Positions 7,692-18,043 of a DNA stretch of 52,179 nucleotides are shown here, in pieces; positions within the stretch are counted from its first letter, which is position 1, and each line of letters begins with the position of its first letter. Location of the stretch: contig MGKV01000021.1 in assembly GCA_001795795.1 (NCBI GenBank), forward strand, positions 15,855 through 68,033, in the 5' to 3' direction. Below the pieces are notes generated by a model that saw only the letters and a list, made by a program, of their open reading frames with translations, searched no databases and was not told the DNA's origin. This stretch comes from Candidatus Yanofskybacteria bacterium RIFCSPLOWO2_02_FULL_45_18. Its GTDB lineage: Bacteria > Patescibacteriota > Minisyncoccia > 2-02-FULL-40-12 > GWA2-44-9. Both the position numbers and the translations under genes were made by a program.

Positions 7692-7718
7692 CAAAAGAGG
7701 CGCTTGGCGCCTCTTTTG
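7692..7718 (+). terminator. Bidirectional intrinsic terminator
   Basis: CAAAAGAGGCGC-ttg-GCGCCTCTTTTG just after the 7663 stop. Confidence 0.75.
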
Positions 7719-8026
7719 CTGTTACCAATAGTGACATGGTGACAGCATGGTGACATCACCATGTCACCTGGTGCCAGACACCATGTCACCTGGTGCCAAA
7801 ATGGTGACACCAATGGTGACATGGTGCCAACTAGGTGACATCACCATGTCACCTAGTGCCAAATTGTCTGTCACCATGACACCAGACACACATTGCTGGG
7901 TTATTTAATAATCTAGGTATTGCTTTGTATTTGAGGGGCAAAGTGAACATGGTGACATGGTGACACCAATGGTGACATGGTGACCATGTCACCTGGTGCC
8001 AAGGTGTCTGTCACCAAGTGCCAGAG

Positions 8027-12090: not shown

Positions 12091-12249
12091 TTTTTGGGCT
12101 GTTTTGCGGGGTTTTTGGGACTATTGACTGGGGGCTTGTTTCTTGGTATAATAACAGATAACAATAGGCATTCGCTTTGGGCGCCTGTTGAGTACTCAAC
12201 AATTGAATTTTTTGGGTCCAGTCGACGGGCTGGGCTTGAGGAGGATCCC

Positions 12250-13050
12250 ATGTTTGAAAAGACAAGGACCGCGGTCCTCCTCGTTCTTGCCGTGCTGGTT
12301 TTTTCAGCACCCGCAGGGGCGGGGATGTTGGACATTGCGTCCAACAACCACCATGACCGGTACGGTGGTTATCGGCAGTACCGGCAACCCTACGGCTATG
12401 GCCAGCCGAGTATTTTAGACGAATGCTCGGCGGCTTTGGCTGATATTCCCTCAAAAGGGGAAAGGATAGCCAAAGCGGGAGTTGACGGCTTATCCGTCGG
12501 GTTCCTGACCAAAGGCCTGACGAAATCGGGCCGATGGGCGGCAGTTGCCGGCGGTTCTACCGCTCTCGTGGAAAGCATCATTATGCTGAAACGGGACGGA
12601 AACCGTCGCAAAGAGTTGCAAGCGGCATGCCTGCAACTCATGCGCGAGCAAGTCGCTCGCGAGCAACAAACCGAACCGGAACCGGACCGCCGCGAGGCGG
12701 ACCGAGAACGGGAAACCGAAAGGGAGTACCGTGAAGCCGAACCGGAATCAGAAATGATTTCGGTGAGGTTTCGAAACCGATTCGTGAAGAAGGAAGTTAC
12801 CGTCGTTATTCTTGGCGGGAACGCTCCTTCTCCGGTGACCTTGTCACCGGGCGAGTCAATAATCATCAGTGTGCCTCAAGGGAGTGGAGTAGAGGCACAC
12901 TATGTCATGACGATAGGTCATGACAAAAACGGAACATCCATTGATGTTCCGACAGTTTTGAAACCGGGTTTCGGAATATACTGGGTCAATGACCAGTATG
13001 AAATCCGCAATCCGTATACGGAAGGAGGCAAAAATGACGATAAGAATTAG
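12250..13050 (+). CDS. Hypothetical secreted protein with glycine-zipper-like segment
   Basis: GAGGAGG RBS before ATG 12250; signal peptide; small-residue hydrophobic segment; charged linker; beta-rich C-terminus. Confidence 0.7.
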   Translation: MFEKTRTAVLLVLAVLVFSAPAGAGMLDIASNNHHDRYGGYRQYRQPYGYGQPSILDECSAALADIPSKGERIAKAGVDGLSVGFLTKGLTKSGRWAAVAGGSTALVESIIMLKRDGNRRKELQAACLQLMREQVAREQQTEPEPDRREADRERETEREYREAEPESEMISVRFRNRFVKKEVTVVILGGNAPSPVTLSPGESIIISVPQGSGVEAHYVMTIGHDKNGTSIDVPTVLKPGFGIYWVNDQYEIRNPYTEGGKNDDKN

Positions 13051-13723
13051 TCCGGTCGTTCTATTTTTGGTGGCGCTTGTCGCCGCCATTGTTCTAGATG
13101 TCTTATTTGTGCCGGCTCGGCTGGCGGCAGCTCTTTTGTGGGTGGTAATCCCAGCGTTTACGCTGGGTCTGCTCATCCACCTATGGATGAGGCCAGCGCC
13201 GACCTTGGCGCCGGGAACAACGGTAAGCTCCGCGGTTACCGTTCCGTATGTAAGCGGAGCGGTAACGCACAAGGTCCCGATACCCGGGACCAATCAAGAA
13301 TTTTTGTTCCGGCCGCCAACGAACGACCGTTGGCATCTGGGACGAAACATGGGCTACGGAATTTTAGTAGCCCTGACTGTTCTGTCCCTGGTGGGGGGTA
13401 TGGTGCATCTTGTTGATGTTTACTATGCTACTCCCGCCACCACGGCCACGGGGGAGCAACCGGCTCCCTTGCCACAACCCCAGCCAGCGGTTGCCGCAGG
13501 CCAGCATGATGGTGACACCGTCACCATCAACCAGCTGAAGCAGGATATTCAAATCCTGCAACAGCGGGTAAACCGTCCGTCCTCGGCGCCACCACATCCT
13601 CTAGTCGCAATTAATGTGACGGGGGGAACGGTGAAGGTGGCTCCGTCGACCCAGCTAGCGGTCAAGCCGGCCGAGACCAAGCCGGTTACCGCTAACCCGT
13701 GGTTGCTCCCCGAAAACCAGTAG
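13034..13723 (+). CDS. Hypothetical membrane protein (3 TM)
   Basis: AAGGAGG RBS, overlap with the upstream gene, hydrophobic helices, Pro/Ala-rich tail. Confidence 0.7.
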   Translation: MTIRISPVVLFLVALVAAIVLDVLFVPARLAAALLWVVIPAFTLGLLIHLWMRPAPTLAPGTTVSSAVTVPYVSGAVTHKVPIPGTNQEFLFRPPTNDRWHLGRNMGYGILVALTVLSLVGGMVHLVDVYYATPATTATGEQPAPLPQPQPAVAAGQHDGDTVTINQLKQDIQILQQRVNRPSSAPPHPLVAINVTGGTVKVAPSTQLAVKPAETKPVTANPWLLPENQ

Positions 13724-13743: not shown

Positions 13744-13781
13744 TGTCCTATACAATTGGCATATGCCAATTGTATAGGACA
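13744..13781. repeat. Perfect 38-bp palindrome P1
   Basis: TGTCCTATACAATTGGCAT|ATGCCAATTGTATAGGACA. Confidence 0.95.
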
Positions 13782-13819
13782 CACTTTCGGAGCCAAGGAG
13801 GATAAAAATGTGGCTCCAC

Positions 13820-13849
13820 GCACGCTTAAATAAAGCGTGCTTTCTTTTT
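13820..13849 (+). terminator. Intrinsic terminator
   Basis: GCACGCTT-aaata-AAGCGTGC then TTTCTTTTT. Confidence 0.6.
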
Positions 13850-14044
13850 CCAGCATTAACTTTAAATCTGCTATGCCTAAAATTGTCGTTAAAATAGATA
13901 ACACAACCATACTTCCGTGAAATATAAATCGTAGCAAAGGATTATGGCATAGCTTTAAGACAATTTGTATTCAAAGTTAGTGCTGGATTTTGCCCAAATT
14001 TTGTTTCCCATTTGCTTTAAGCGCCATCCTTGATTTATTGTAGC

Positions 14045-14094
14045 AGCACCTGTCCCCCACTTTCAGCAATTGCTGAAAGTGGGGGACAGGTGCT
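14045..14094. repeat. Perfect 50-bp palindrome P2 (38-bp core 14051-14088)
   Basis: AGCACCTGTCCCCCACTTTCAGCAA|TTGCTGAAAGTGGGGGACAGGTGCT. Confidence 0.97.
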
Positions 14095-14141
14095 ATTATG
14101 TTATTAATGTGCTAAATATTTGTTAAATAACGGTTTCGCTT

Positions 14142-14729
14142 ATGTCACGATCTAATATAAAAAATTCGTTTTCTTACAAATTATTAAAAGCTATAGCTGT
14201 TGGCGGAATGGTGATGGTGGCCGCTGGCAATCCATATTTCGGTTTGGGCGCTTTTAAGGCCATAAGAAAAGAGCTTAAACGAAAAAAGTGGCGACAATTT
14301 TATAAAGAACTTTGGAAATTAAAGCATCTTAAGAGGGTTAATGTTTCTTCAAGCCCGGACGGAACTTACGCGGTAGAAATTGCCCAAATGGGCAAGAGTA
14401 CACTTATAAAGTATGACCTAGATAATTTATCCATAAAGCCCATGCATAATTGGGACGGTTATTGGAGGCTTTTCTTTTTTGATATACCAGCTGATAAAAA
14501 AGGGAGACATTCGCTGTTGGCTAAGTTAAGGGAATTGGGTTTTGTTAAAGTGCAGAAAAGCTTATGGGCACATCCGTTTGAGTGTAGGGAAGAGCTTGCC
14601 GTAATATCAAAAGCATTTGAGGTAGAACCCTATGTGAAACATTGTTTAGCGTACGACTTTGACACTGATTGGAAACTTATAAAAGATTTTGAGAGAATAA
14701 ATGGAATAAAACTTAAAGATCGAAATTAG
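14142..14729 (+). CDS. Stand-alone PaaX-like protein: basic wHTH-like N-region + Cas2/VapD-like ferredoxin-fold domain
   Basis: WDGYWRLFFFDIP...LRELGFVKVQKSLWAHPF matches the PaaX central/Cas2-like signature; AT-rich relative to its neighbours. Confidence 0.85.
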   Translation: MSRSNIKNSFSYKLLKAIAVGGMVMVAAGNPYFGLGAFKAIRKELKRKKWRQFYKELWKLKHLKRVNVSSSPDGTYAVEIAQMGKSTLIKYDLDNLSIKPMHNWDGYWRLFFFDIPADKKGRHSLLAKLRELGFVKVQKSLWAHPFECREELAVISKAFEVEPYVKHCLAYDFDTDWKLIKDFERINGIKLKDRN

Positions 14730-14738
14730 TTTGCGAGG

Positions 14739-14776
14739 TGTCCCCTACTTTCAGCAATTGCTGAAAGTAGGGGACA
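14739..14776. repeat. Perfect 38-bp palindrome P3
   Basis: TGTCCCCTACTTTCAGCAA|TTGCTGAAAGTAGGGGACA, starting 10 bp after the stop codon. Confidence 0.97.
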
Positions 14777-14817
14777 GAGATATTAACTAATAAAAACAGA
14801 GATAATAACTAATAAAA
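14774..14817 (+). repeat. 22-bp tandem duplication
   Basis: ACAGAGATATTAACTAATAAAA / ACAGAGATAATAACTAATAAAA (21/22 identical). Confidence 0.9.
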
Positions 14818-14851
14818 GTTGGTTAAGGAGGATCGCTGGAAATAGTGAATT

Positions 14852-15328
14852 ATGCTTATGAAAATTTTATCTAAAAGTCCGAGCCAAACCGAAGAAATCG
14901 GGGCAAAATTAGCTCTTCAGCGGACTCAAGGCAAATTTCAACAAAAACAAGCCATTATAATCGCTTTGGAAGGAGAGCTGGGGGCGGGCAAGACGGTATT
15001 TGTAAAGGGTTTCGCGGCGGCGCTGGGCGTCAAAAAGGGGATTCGTAGCCCCACTTTTAATCTGATGAAACGCTACCCCATCAAAGCCATAGGCCATAGG
15101 CCATTAGCCATAAGCTATTTGTATCATCTTGATTGTTACCGATTGAATAGCGGAAAAGAGTTGGAAGCGCTAGGATTTAAAGAAATTGTATCTGACCCGC
15201 GCAACATTATTCTGATAGAATGGGCGGAGAGGGTAAAGGATGCCTTACCGAGAAAATATGTCAAAGTACACATTGACCATGTTGACGAAACAACAAGAAA
15301 GCTGCAAATTTTTAATTTTCAATTTTAA
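14852..15328 (+). CDS. tsaE: tRNA threonylcarbamoyladenosine biosynthesis ATPase TsaE
   Basis: LEGELGAGKT, SPTF, HLDCYRL, IEWAE. Confidence 0.95.
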   Translation: MLMKILSKSPSQTEEIGAKLALQRTQGKFQQKQAIIIALEGELGAGKTVFVKGFAAALGVKKGIRSPTFNLMKRYPIKAIGHRPLAISYLYHLDCYRLNSGKELEALGFKEIVSDPRNIILIEWAERVKDALPRKYVKVHIDHVDETTRKLQIFNFQF

Positions 15329-15403
15329 ATTTTCAATCAATTTTCAATTATTTAATTTTCAAATCTTGTTTGGAAATTGGAAATTGGAACTTGGAAATTC
15401 AAA
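15304..15403. repeat. Heptamer repeat tract (TCAATTT)n...(TGGAAAT)n
   Basis: Degenerate 7-nt periodicity with inverted halves between tsaE and polA. Confidence 0.75.
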
Positions 15404-18043
15404 ATGAGAAAGCTCATTTTGGTCGATTCCAACGCCTTGGTGCATCGGGCTTTTCACGCTCTGCCGCCGATGAATTCACCCAAGGGCCTGCCGACCAACG
15501 CCGTCTATGGTTTTACTGCGGTATTTTTGAAGATGCTCAAGGATATAAAGCCGGATTATATCGCGGCGACTTTTGATTTGGCGGCGCCGACTTTCCGCCA
15601 CGAAGAATTTGAAGAATACAAGGCCCATCGCATGAAAGCGCCCGACGAGCTTTATATTCAAGTCCAGCCGATTAAAGAACTGCTAATGGCCTTTGGCGTG
15701 CCGATTTACGAAAGGGCGGGTTATGAGGCGGACGACCTCATCGGTTCTCTGGCGGAAAAAGCTAAAAAATCCGAAGACCTGCAGGTTATAATTGTAACCG
15801 GCGATCTGGACACCCTGCAGTTGGTTGATGGCGATAAGGTGGTGGTTTTTACTTTGCGCAAGGGCATTACCGATACGATTACCTATGACGAAAAAGAGGT
15901 TAAAAAGCGCTATGGATTTTTGCCGGAGCGGGTAACGGATTATAAGGGCCTCAGGGGCGATCCGTCGGATAATATCCCGGGGGTAAAAGGCGTAGGGGAA
16001 ACGACGGCGACAACACTGATAAAAAAATATGGCACGATTGAAAAGCTGTACGAAGAAATAGAGCGAAAAGCGAAAAGCGAAAAGCGAAAAGCGACAGTTA
16101 AAAAACCAAAAGAAATAAATATACTGCCGGAAAAACTCGTAGAAAAATTGCTGGCCGACAAAGATATGGCATTTTTCTCTAAGAAACTGGCGACAATCGT
16201 GCGGACAGTTGAGGTTGACTTTGATTTGGACAAAACCGATTGGCGTAAAAACCTTAACCGCGAAGCGCTGGAGAAAATTCTGCGCGACTTGGGTTTTTAT
16301 TCACTGGTGAAGCGTCTGGATGAGTCATTGGGCCAGAATCCGTCTAAACCCGAACAGCTTTCGGTTTTTGCGGATGAAGCAATAAAACCGGCGGTGGAGA
16401 TGGTTGAAATCGCCGACCCTGGCAAATTGCCCCCCGCCGGCGAGCTTGCCATTTGTCTTGGCGATGATTTTGCCAGCTTTGCTTCCAACCCCGACAGGGT
16501 TTACAAAATTAGATTACAGGGACGGAAAATAAGCGACACAATTCTAACCAAAACCCGTCTTATCGGCCATGATCTTAAATATCTTAATCGCCGGGCATTT
16601 CAAGAAAATTTTGAAATTAAAAACGAGGTTTTTGACACCAAAATTGCCGCTTATCTGATTAACCCCGATGGGCGCGACTATGATTTTTACAAGGTATTTT
16701 ACGCCGAACTGGGTTATTCGGCCGATGAAAATCCAGTTTTACGGCCCGCCTACGCCTTGCGGCTTCGGCAGGTACAATGGGAAAAACTCAAATCCAACAA
16801 TCTGATAAAGGTCTTTGAAGATATTGAGATGCCATTGATAAAAGTGTTGGCGTGGATGGAACTTAACGGCATCAAAGTGGATGTTCGTGTGCTTAATGAC
16901 TTGCAGAAACTTTGCGCTAAAGAGCTGGCCCAGCTGAAAAAACAAATCCATATTCTGGCCGGCGATGAGTTCAATATTAACTCCCCTCAACAGCTGGGCG
17001 AGATATTGTTCACGAAACTGGCTTTGAAAGGACGGGTGCGCAAGACGGGCAAAGGGGTGCCCTCAACCGCCGCTCCGGAACTGGAAAAGATTCGTGACGA
17101 ACACCCGATCATCCCACTTGTTCTTGACTATCGCGAGCTTCAAAAGCTCAAGACCGCATACATTGAACCCTTCCCCGAGTTGATAAGTAAGAAAGACGGG
17201 CGTATTCATACGACTTACAATCAAACCGGCACCGGCACGGGGCGCCTTGCTTCGCAAGATCCCAATTTGCAGAATATTCCCACCCGCACCGAGCTAGGGC
17301 AGGAGTTTCGCAAGGCGTTCGTTGCCGGAAAAGGCAATCAACTACTCTCTTTTGACTATTCGCAAATTGAACTGCGCATTGTCGCGCATTTGGCGCATGA
17401 CGAGAAAATGATCGCTGCTTTCAAGCGCGGCGAGGACATCCACACCCGCACCGCTTCGGAGGTCTTTGGGGTTTTGCCGGAAAAAGTAACCAAAGAAATG
17501 CGCCGCCAGGCCAAGGTTTTGAATTTCGGCATTATCTACGGCATGGGTGTTTTGGGTTTCGCGCGCTCGGCGGGAGTAGATCGCAACCGGGCGCGCGAAT
17601 TCATTGACCGCTATTTTCGCGAGTTTGAAGGCGTGGCGCGCTATATGGCCGAAACCAAAAAACTGGCCGACCGGAATGAATATGTTCAGACGCTTTTCGG
17701 CCGGAGACGGCTTCTGCCGGAAATTCACTCGCAAATGCCCCAGCTTCGCGCCCAAGCCGAACGCATGGCCGTCAATCATCCGGTGCAGGGAACGGCGGCT
17801 GACTTGATTAAAATGGCCATGATTACCGTGGATAAATATCTTCAGGGTTCGACATTGAAGAAAGAAAAGATTAAAATGTTACTGCAAGTTCATGACGAGC
17901 TTGTTTTTGAAGTGAATTCCGGTTTTGTCGCCCAAGTCGCCCCCAAGATAAAAGAAATCATGGGGGGAGTTTATAAACTTGATATCCCGCTTGTAATTGA
18001 TGTAAAAGTGGGGGAGAATTGGGCAGAGATGAAGAAATTGTGA
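15404..18043 (+). CDS. polA: DNA polymerase I
   Basis: 5'-3' exonuclease (HRAFHALP, YEADD, GDPSDNIPGV) and polymerase motifs DYSQIELR, AKVLNFGIIYG, QVHDEL; ATG 15404. Confidence 0.98.
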   Translation: MRKLILVDSNALVHRAFHALPPMNSPKGLPTNAVYGFTAVFLKMLKDIKPDYIAATFDLAAPTFRHEEFEEYKAHRMKAPDELYIQVQPIKELLMAFGVPIYERAGYEADDLIGSLAEKAKKSEDLQVIIVTGDLDTLQLVDGDKVVVFTLRKGITDTITYDEKEVKKRYGFLPERVTDYKGLRGDPSDNIPGVKGVGETTATTLIKKYGTIEKLYEEIERKAKSEKRKATVKKPKEINILPEKLVEKLLADKDMAFFSKKLATIVRTVEVDFDLDKTDWRKNLNREALEKILRDLGFYSLVKRLDESLGQNPSKPEQLSVFADEAIKPAVEMVEIADPGKLPPAGELAICLGDDFASFASNPDRVYKIRLQGRKISDTILTKTRLIGHDLKYLNRRAFQENFEIKNEVFDTKIAAYLINPDGRDYDFYKVFYAELGYSADENPVLRPAYALRLRQVQWEKLKSNNLIKVFEDIEMPLIKVLAWMELNGIKVDVRVLNDLQKLCAKELAQLKKQIHILAGDEFNINSPQQLGEILFTKLALKGRVRKTGKGVPSTAAPELEKIRDEHPIIPLVLDYRELQKLKTAYIEPFPELISKKDGRIHTTYNQTGTGTGRLASQDPNLQNIPTRTELGQEFRKAFVAGKGNQLLSFDYSQIELRIVAHLAHDEKMIAAFKRGEDIHTRTASEVFGVLPEKVTKEMRRQAKVLNFGIIYGMGVLGFARSAGVDRNRAREFIDRYFREFEGVARYMAETKKLADRNEYVQTLFGRRRLLPEIHSQMPQLRAQAERMAVNHPVQGTAADLIKMAMITVDKYLQGSTLKKEKIKMLLQVHDELVFEVNSGFVAQVAPKIKEIMGGVYKLDIPLVIDVKVGENWAEMKKL

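Follow-up and report, generated by a model that had tools for sequence, protein, structure and literature searches.

This analysis concerns a small gene unit at positions 14045 to 14817 of a 52,179-nucleotide stretch of DNA (hereafter the window) from Candidatus Yanofskybacteria bacterium RIFCSPLOWO2_02_FULL_45_18 (GenBank contig MGKV01000021.1, positions 15,855 to 68,033), whose genome of 627 kb in 23 contigs is 97.7% complete. At the heart of the unit lies an open reading frame (ORF) of 195 aa on the forward strand (14142-14729), here called mini-PaaX, whose product matches the central domain (PaaX_M) of the transcriptional repressor PaaX and has no PaaX_C domain. The gene is bracketed by two perfect, loop-free palindromes, or dyads, to which no strand is assigned. 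The upstream one, P_L, spans 50 bp (14045-14094), has two 25-nt arms that are 100% complementary (14045-14069 and 14070-14094), and ends 47 nt before the ATG; within it a 38-bp core can be read as TGTCCC-N26-GGGACA (14051-14088). The downstream one, P_R, spans 38 bp (14739-14776), has two 19-nt arms, again 100% complementary (14739-14757 and 14758-14776), and starts at the tenth base past the stop codon. Two mirror positions alone distinguish the 38-bp cores, C..G in one and T..A in the other, a change that leaves the pairing intact. Abutting P_R is a 22-bp tandem duplication on the forward strand (14774-14817; two copies with one mismatch, 95% identical). The ORF with its PaaX-type central domain, the two palindromes, the difference between their cores, and the duplication had been pointed out in a preliminary description of this DNA and were confirmed by recomputation. 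The same description called the unit AT-rich relative to both polA and tsaE; this is right only in part, the GC content being 0.35-0.41 in the unit, 0.37-0.43 in tsaE, and 0.41-0.57 in polA. A degenerate pattern of the core has two matches in the window, while none of 100 dinucleotide-preserving shuffles contains any match. The neighbours of the gene are hypothetical ORFs, tsaE (PF02367, E 4e-35), and polA.

Mini-PaaX matches Pfam PaaX_M (PF20803) with an E value of 3.8e-15 and 56.2 bits (cut-off 24) over residues 102-168, leaving only about 27 residues on the C-terminal side; PaaX_C gave no match. The preliminary description had proposed both the PaaX central domain and a Cas2-like fold for this region, and for the second there are weak matches: 17 bits with the Cas2 model TIGR01573 (below its cut-off of 24.5), and E values with the PADLOC Cas2 models of 9e-4 for mini-PaaX down to 1e-7 for its paralogue, besides one winged-helix match. 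This paralogue, the only one in the genome, lies on contig C8, has 176 aa, and is 23% identical to the window protein; it matches PaaX_M at E 4.4e-21 and scores 25.9 bits with Pfam CRISPR_Cas2 (PF09827), above the cut-off of 23.8. A PDB sequence search aligns the signature FD(I/V)P...R...L...GF...QKS(V/L)(W/F) with type II Cas2 chains at E ~0.03, and up to E 1 it yields only such weak Cas2 chains and no PaaX entry; a PHROGs search gave nothing meaningful. The ESM Atlas model of mini-PaaX aligns to full-length PaaX clusters over residues 1-194 with a TM score of 0.49, which is suggestive only; PaaX_M is present in every one of the nearest clusters in that atlas, and Cas2 is matched as well by 10-42% of their members. 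Invariant across 22 sequences are L60, G84, D105, R109, F113, D114, P116, L129, Q138, S140, P145, and E151. The family has the ferredoxin-like signature in common with Cas2. Unlike in Cas2, however, the domain is fused to a putative DNA-binding N-terminal part, no match to Cas1 (PF01867) occurs in the whole 627-kb genome, and the 52-kb window shows no CRISPR-like array of interspaced repeats, in agreement with what the preliminary description had said of the window.

The family is very large. A profile search of 1.84 billion representative proteins retrieved 5,806 family clusters (at 50% identity) with E values up to 0.001, 3,191 up to 1e-10, and 695 up to 1e-30; the best 150 of the 5,806 members are mostly 170-240 aa long. 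In their source records the members are named hypothetical protein, 'DNA-binding transcriptional regulator PaaX', or putative Cas2, and homologues and related entries bear the labels Patescibacteria, Paceibacterota, or Candidatus Yanofskybacteria. Family genes occur in 32 of 61 related genomes (this one counted), with 0 to 8 per genome; within a genome the paralogues are 22-64% identical, and no pair exceeds 64%. Searches of the literature, which reached few subscription journals and no supplements, brought to light no account of the mini-PaaX family or of the twin-dyad layout.

The bracketing of the gene by matching dyads is not a peculiarity of this locus. Two sets of loci were compared: 40 fetched from related genomes, and 53 from a species-wide collection, 39 of which were new after 14 duplicates had been dropped. 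For each locus a twin-flank score was taken from the best gapless alignment of the 300 nt preceding the gene with the 300 nt following it, with a threshold of at least 20; only loci with enough flank were counted, gene starts and neighbours were assigned by crude ORF rules, and the related genomes are not independent samples. Twin flank repeats at or above the threshold are present in 29 of 41 loci in the first set and in 22 of 36 in the second, amounting to 51 of 77. As a control, five of the 534 crude gene predictions in this genome reach a score of 20, and two of them are the family genes; the three others (of 532) have repeats of another kind, which are non-palindromic. The test for flanking palindromes at homologues that the preliminary description had called for thus came out in its favour. 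The dyad sequence itself differs at nearly every locus. The C8 paralogue, for instance, is bracketed by two near-identical, imperfect 38-nt palindromes with a sequence quite unlike that of the window dyads. At 50 clear twin-dyad loci the upstream centre lies a median of 31.5 nt before the start codon, the downstream centre a median of 29.5 nt after the stop codon (interquartile range 17.5-44), and the two centres are 542-770 bp apart (median 643).

Dyad and protein diverge together, as the preliminary description had proposed to check. The distance between operators tracks the distance between proteins with r 0.45, a value reached by none of 2000 permutations. Partial correlations with the N-terminal and C-terminal halves of the protein are about equal (r 0.15 and 0.20), and the covariation cannot say which domain reads the DNA.

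Surveys of this family will be biased by the dyads themselves. Contig pieces covering this locus in four DNA runs stop at the palindrome centres, and one 680-nt piece (14065-14744) is identical in X3, X5, and X8. Many family genes (P0010, P0013, P0019, P0037, P0057, P0058, and others) are found on contigs of only about 650-800 bp. Both observations indicate that the dyads fragment assemblies, by which flanks are hidden from view.

What the dyads are recognised as, duplex or hairpin, can be judged from their symmetry. At all loci examined the centre falls between two bases, with no loop. Over 64 sites the mirror symmetry, counted from the centre, amounts to 0.84-0.95 at positions 1-4, 0.70-0.80 at positions 5-8, and 0.84-1.00 at positions 9-18, and has fallen to 0.41 by position 22. 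Two positions are conserved family-wide, G at position 3 (121 of 128 half-sites) and T at position 13 (100 of 128); they are 10 bp apart, that is, one helical turn. Symmetry that runs through the centre and dips in mid-stem fits contacts on one face of a duplex better than it fits a hairpin, which would leave the loop free and constrain the mid-stem equally. We judge it quite likely that the protein itself binds the dyads as duplex DNA.

A competing proposal is that the palindromes work as RNA or single-stranded DNA hairpins at transcript ends, bound or cleaved by the Cas2-like domain, for example in processing or stabilising the gene's own mRNA. Some Cas2 and VapD proteins are reported to be RNases, and the predicted folds are very stable: -50.8 and -32.3 kcal/mol for P_L and P_R, with z scores of -11.7 and -8.8 and none of 200 shuffles as good. 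The difference between the two cores preserves pairing, a further point in favour; mirror-image changes in long near-palindromes can, however, also arise by template switching during replication. Against the proposal, the two central positions, where a hairpin would have its loop, are self-complementary at 84% and 92% of the 64 sites, the least symmetric positions are those of the mid-stem (5-8), and the spacing of G3 and T13 by one helical turn suits recognition of a duplex. Nor did Rfam contain any family at gathering score, the only matches being spurious sub-threshold ones to microRNA hairpins. With the promoter-like context described below, which places the upstream dyad outside the gene's own transcript at many loci, we regard the hairpin proposal as highly improbable.

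At P_L a candidate promoter can be discerned on the forward strand, in which a -35-like TTGCTG (14070-14075) lies at the dyad centre and is followed by an 18-nt spacer and a -10-like TATTAT (14094-14099). Our promoter readings are consensus matches, and a stricter promoter scan did not list this pair. In 20 of the 50 loci a -10-like hexamer starts 19-30 nt from the upstream dyad centre in the direction of the gene, versus 10 loci on the far side; beside the downstream dyad the corresponding counts are three on the right side and five on the other. Such a position next to the upstream dyad is the one expected of an auto-operator. As the -10-like element stands between dyad and start codon, the upstream dyad would lie outside the gene's own RNA at many loci, which again speaks against a hairpin in that RNA. 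At 11 loci the end of the hexamer is 5-8 nt away from the start codon, a spacing suggestive of leaderless mRNAs whose 5' ends lie past the upstream dyad.

This arrangement recalls PaaX itself, the phenylacetyl-CoA-responsive repressor of the paa genes in E. coli and Pseudomonas, with which mini-PaaX shares PaaX_M and the order of a winged helix followed by a central domain. In a review of the phenylacetate pathway, the E. coli PaaX operator is given as TGATTC(N27)GAATCA, PaaX is said to repress its own promoter, and the PaaX-like structure 3L09 is described as a winged helix-turn-helix (wHTH), a dimerisation motif, and a C-terminal domain (PMC9493321). Mini-PaaX likewise has a long dyad, TGTCCC-N26-GGGACA, at its own putative promoter 47 nt before the ATG, with a nearly equal span of 38 bp against the 39 bp of the E. 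coli operator as published there. There are differences as well. Unlike PaaX, mini-PaaX is short and lacks PaaX_C; its gene neighbours are tsaE and polA, with no paa genes seen nearby (no search was aimed at paa genes); its gene is bracketed by two copies of the presumed operator; and a genome may hold many divergent paralogues, each with its private dyad.

Autoregulated repression by a truncated PaaX-type repressor with two private operators is, in our opinion, probably the best single account of these observations. Mini-PaaX would consist of a winged-helix DNA-binding part and a Cas2-like part serving as dimerisation domain, with no ligand-binding C-terminal domain, and the two 38-bp dyads, as double-stranded DNA, would serve it as private operators. 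Each dyad would be contacted by one dimer or by two, at its centre (C-N4-G) and at outer blocks about 13 bp to either side. The upstream dyad would cover the -35 element and the spacer of the gene's own promoter, so that the protein would shut off its own transcription. The downstream dyad would be a second site tied to the end of the gene, and may act together with the upstream one, hinder transcription through the unit, or control the gene that follows. One part of the idea put forward in the preliminary description, namely that the wHTH binds the palindrome in a self-regulating unit, is well supported by the operator-like geometry, the contact-like positions, and the overlap with a putative promoter; its other part, cutting by the Cas2-like domain and mobility, is not supported (see below).

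The role of the downstream dyad may also be sought in the gene that follows. It could be the operator of the next gene's promoter, which would make the protein a local regulator of itself and its neighbour, here tsaE-polA. The next gene is co-directional at 29 loci, convergent at 10, and not called at two; at most of the co-directional loci some 20-135 nt separate the downstream centre from the predicted start that follows it. In addition, a G-rich, Shine-Dalgarno-like run (GGG, GAGG, or GGTGG) occurs 19-34 nt past the downstream dyad centre at 21 of 48 loci, compared to 1-5 of 50 on each of the other three sides. The dyad nevertheless tracks the stop codon, to which it keeps its tight distance, and not the next start, for which the gap measured from the stop ranges from 16 to 686 nt. 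It persists where the next gene is convergent, it seldom has a -10-like hexamer beside it, and the genes that neighbour family members are unrelated from locus to locus. Moreover, where the unit is missing, tsaE has a promoter-like site of its own (e.g. TTGAAA-N17-TAAAAT) that ends 5-7 nt before the ATG (L067, L058) and needs no regulator of this kind; the spacing suggests leaderless tsaE transcripts in this lineage. We therefore consider an operator for the next gene very unlikely to be the explanation; both this reading and that of hairpins fit fewer observations than either autoregulated repression or the selfish cassette discussed below. With regard to the G-rich run, it is often too distant from the next start codon for a ribosome-binding site. 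The window's own locus has none in the 19-34 nt span; an AAGGAGG is found there at 14825-14831, 67-73 nt from the centre of P_R.

The inheritance of the unit was followed at the tsaE locus. Of 57 genomes that have a tsaE match, 45 were examined upstream of that gene, and five of them hold the unit there; it is present in none of the 40 newly fetched regions, two of which have less than 300 nt of upstream sequence. In four other genomes, which belong to different genera and to two families, an orthologue is situated directly upstream of tsaE-polA. These orthologues are 47-56% identical in the family gene, 46-53% in tsaE, and 61-66% in polA, and the family gene has thus diverged much as its neighbours have. 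The same position in different genera and this neighbour-like divergence fit vertical descent with losses; orthology at tsaE-polA across genera, taken with the 22-64% identity between paralogues, fits old resident regulators. The ceiling of 64% within genomes further argues against recent copying.

Empty sites upstream of tsaE, which the preliminary description had suggested looking for, do exist, also among congeners. In one genus, an occupied and an empty site are homologous through the terminator of the upstream gene and again from tsaE onwards, the difference being the whole unit of ~790 bp; a second genus displays the same pattern. Such block-wise presence and absence favours a different reading, in which the unit is a selfish and at least formerly mobile cassette: the protein would recognise the palindromes as ends, the Cas2-like domain or a host enzyme would cut, units or single palindromes would be gained, lost, and seeded elsewhere, and autoregulation would be housekeeping by the element and not a service to the cell. 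The low occupancy at tsaE and the uneven distribution of family genes among genomes accord with it, as does the absence of any palindrome left behind at the empty sites. Yet in both genera the empty sites also have no half-site footprint and no target-site duplication, no within-genome pair shows the identity expected of recent copies, and the tsaE-polA orthologues sit in the same place across genera and two families, as diverged as the genes beside them. Contigs from four other samples contain no joint that skips the unit, although contigs lose rare variants, and an excised form may exist all the same. The unit carries no known recombinase. The one gene of the genome that matches PF01797 (Y1, the IS200-like or REP-associated type of transposase) lies elsewhere, near a contig end (C15:147-488, in the region C15:111-785, L087; E 9.9e-17), and the small GC-rich hairpin upstream of it is unrelated to the TGTCC palindromes. 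With no sign of recent movement and no cutting enzyme, we rate the cassette as unlikely, although by no means negligible.

The cassette reading draws further on palindromes that stand alone, and here too the evidence cuts both ways. This genome (G000) has three solo copies of the palindrome family, on C7, C17, and C19, plus one diverged neighbour. The C7 copy is intergenic and identical to the C17 copy over 38 of 38 nt. The C19 copy (C19:13999-14050) is situated in a divergent intergenic region, adjoins a DsbA-like gene, and is interrupted by 11 N. The C17 copy (C17:39666-39703, L046) lies in frame in a gene for an RluA-family pseudouridine synthase, where it adds 12 residues (STVPYFQHMLKI) in a loop that are absent from 19 of 19 aligned orthologues; its last 7 nt double as conserved Gly-Asp codons. 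Elsewhere, G011 has one solo copy, which is perfect over 56 bp and lies some 200 nt upstream of groES, and G050 has one although the family gene was not found in that genome. In G024 one copy occurs in a membrane-protein ORF, with a net gain of three residues relative to the single orthologue compared, which is no clean insertion. The copies are few, with a range of 0-4 per genome and, for the dyads searched, none in G028, G035, G057, and G049. No remnants of a family gene were found within 900 nt of the three G000 copies, and except for the DsbA-like gene the genes beside solo copies have no Pfam family, so that no common regulon theme emerges. One further candidate (G010:C1:501) was rejected, as it matches a 14-nt core only and not the long palindrome. 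Two other palindrome families were seen in G000 and may be sites of other regulators: AGTGAAAATT(Y)CGC...GCG(R)AATTTTCACT at C17:15366-15417, C18:13656-13695, C19:10448-10483, and C7:67002-67037, and CCCCCACAC...GTGTGGGGG at C20:6747-6782 and C23:4461-4490. A palindrome similar to the latter is found 33 nt upstream of tsaE in another genome (L063).

Several of our observations weigh against autoregulated repression, or at least against its being the whole account. The PaaX assignment itself is partial: the PaaX N-terminal HTH (PF07848) went undetected in Pfam at E values up to 1, PaaX_M being the sole match, and the PaaX equivalog model TIGR02277 gives 20.2 bits against a cut-off of 264.55. 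The Asp D114, which aligns with the Cas2 position that we take to be catalytic, is invariant in the 22 sequences; a pure dimerisation role has no obvious need for that residue, and its conservation, together with the Cas2-like signature and the CRISPR_Cas2 score of the C8 paralogue, counts in favour of the cassette. The downstream dyad lacks a clear regulatory logic, being kept at the convergent loci L010, L013, L023, L029, and L036 and accompanied by a -10-like hexamer at 3 of 50 loci. DNA looping was looked for as helical phasing between the twin dyads, and none was found: the best R of 0.165 was reached by 1437 of 2000 jittered sets. Among twin pairs scoring at least 20, the direct match is the better one in 14 cases, the inverted match in seven, and the two are about equal in 30; imperfect twin dyads thus often have the same asymmetry in both copies, and this points to copying or conversion between the two sites rather than to independent selection on each, which again suits a cassette. 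Finally, the whole palindrome-gene-palindrome unit behaves as an indel between congeners, and solo copies occur, one of them inside a coding gene and one in a genome with no detected family gene.

Repressor and selfish element are not fully exclusive, since a selfish module would still autoregulate. That the unit is an undescribed module of this kind, in which a DNA-binding Cas2-fold protein maintains and occasionally disperses its own 38-bp sites, the whole being gained and lost as a block in the smallest of bacterial genomes, appears to us distinctly unlikely. The more specific proposal of the preliminary description, by which the Cas2-like domain would cut a cruciform or an RNA hairpin in a self-mobilising unit, is not supported, given the symmetry through the centre, the position of the upstream dyad outside the likely transcript at many loci, the divergence of the paralogues (22-64%), the syntenic orthologues, and the absence of a unit-skipping contig in four other samples; no observation speaks for nuclease action.

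Among known systems, the REP/RAYT pair bears comparison. A RAYT is a single, vertically inherited gene with cognate flanking palindromes that are lineage-specific and have extra copies elsewhere in the genome. The mini-PaaX unit is alike in its single, vertically inherited gene, in its cognate flanking palindromes (at 51 of 77 loci), in their lineage-specific sequences, and in the extra genomic copies; this part of the likeness drawn in the preliminary description stands. It fails for the protein family and the copy number: the flanked protein is of the PaaX_M type and not a Y1 transposase, solo copies number 0-4 per genome as against tens to hundreds, and, unlike REPs, the window dyads are perfect and loop-free with a conservation of the duplex type. 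The likeness to IS200/605-type elements, also suggested there, is not upheld, given the highest within-genome identity of 64% and the empty sites in two genera with neither palindrome nor duplication. Rickettsia palindromic elements are short palindromes inserted in frame in genes. The C17 copy resembles them in its 12 in-frame residues, in a loop of an RluA-family protein and absent from 19 orthologues; in contrast to those elements, there is only one clear case, the copy number is very low, and the gene for a putative cognate DNA-binding protein is known. In phage lambda, the repressor gene cI stands between the operators OL and OR, which are bound by its own product. By analogy, mini-PaaX may likewise be a repressor gene between two operators of its own, although the fold is different, a phage context is missing, and promoter elements are usually absent from the downstream site, whereas the lambda operators are tripartite and control outward lytic promoters.

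The pairing of a PaaX-type repressor with its operator is known; what is new is its self-bracketed and massively diversified form. Recognisable regulators are, to our knowledge, few in the candidate phyla radiation of bacteria, and hardly any has a known binding site. Here, a very large family (5,806 clusters, with up to eight members in a genome of about 1 Mb) has its probable operator written on both sides of the gene, and hence offers directly testable repressor-operator pairs from organisms that cannot be cultured alone. It may equally be regarded as a natural library of seemingly orthogonal pairs, possible parts for genetic circuits. It is puzzling that genomes so reduced retain several small repressors with no evident targets other than both ends of the genes that encode them. 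If D114 were catalytic on the palindromes, the family would connect Cas2-fold proteins that recognise repeats to regulators of the PaaX type and constitute a new class of mobile or addictive elements, and if the unit were a selfish module, its sites could even land in frame in housekeeping genes.

Some features around the unit deserve mention. Another perfect palindrome of 38 bp, similar in style to the first two and absent from the preliminary description, TGTCC...GGCATATGCC...GGACA (13744-13781, no strand assigned), is located between the stop of an ORF (12989-13723) and a conventional terminator-like hairpin with a T-run (13820-13840, listed to 13849). Its centre is 307 bp upstream of that of P_L, a space too small for a gene in between, and no remnant of a family gene was found there. 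The three top-ranking short-range inverted repeats of the 52-kb window, this one among them, all fall within 13744-14776. As an intrinsic terminator P_L was rejected: the terminator scan flags it solely for its long stem, and no T-run follows either P_L or P_R. The palindrome cluster is immediately preceded by two ORFs (318 and 244 aa; 12094-13723) with an unusually high GC content of 0.55-0.585, against ~0.45 in their surroundings, and neither matches a Pfam family. Further upstream, two 74-nt direct repeats (7717-7875; 80% identical, starts 85 nt apart) carry interleaved GGTGACA / TGTCACC motifs and a nested 25-nt repeat in three copies. The tsaE-polA junction (15244-15405) contains low-complexity AATTTTCAA / TTGGAAAT repeats, over which the contig depth in sequencing runs shows a thousand-fold excess derived from many organisms, a mapping artefact.

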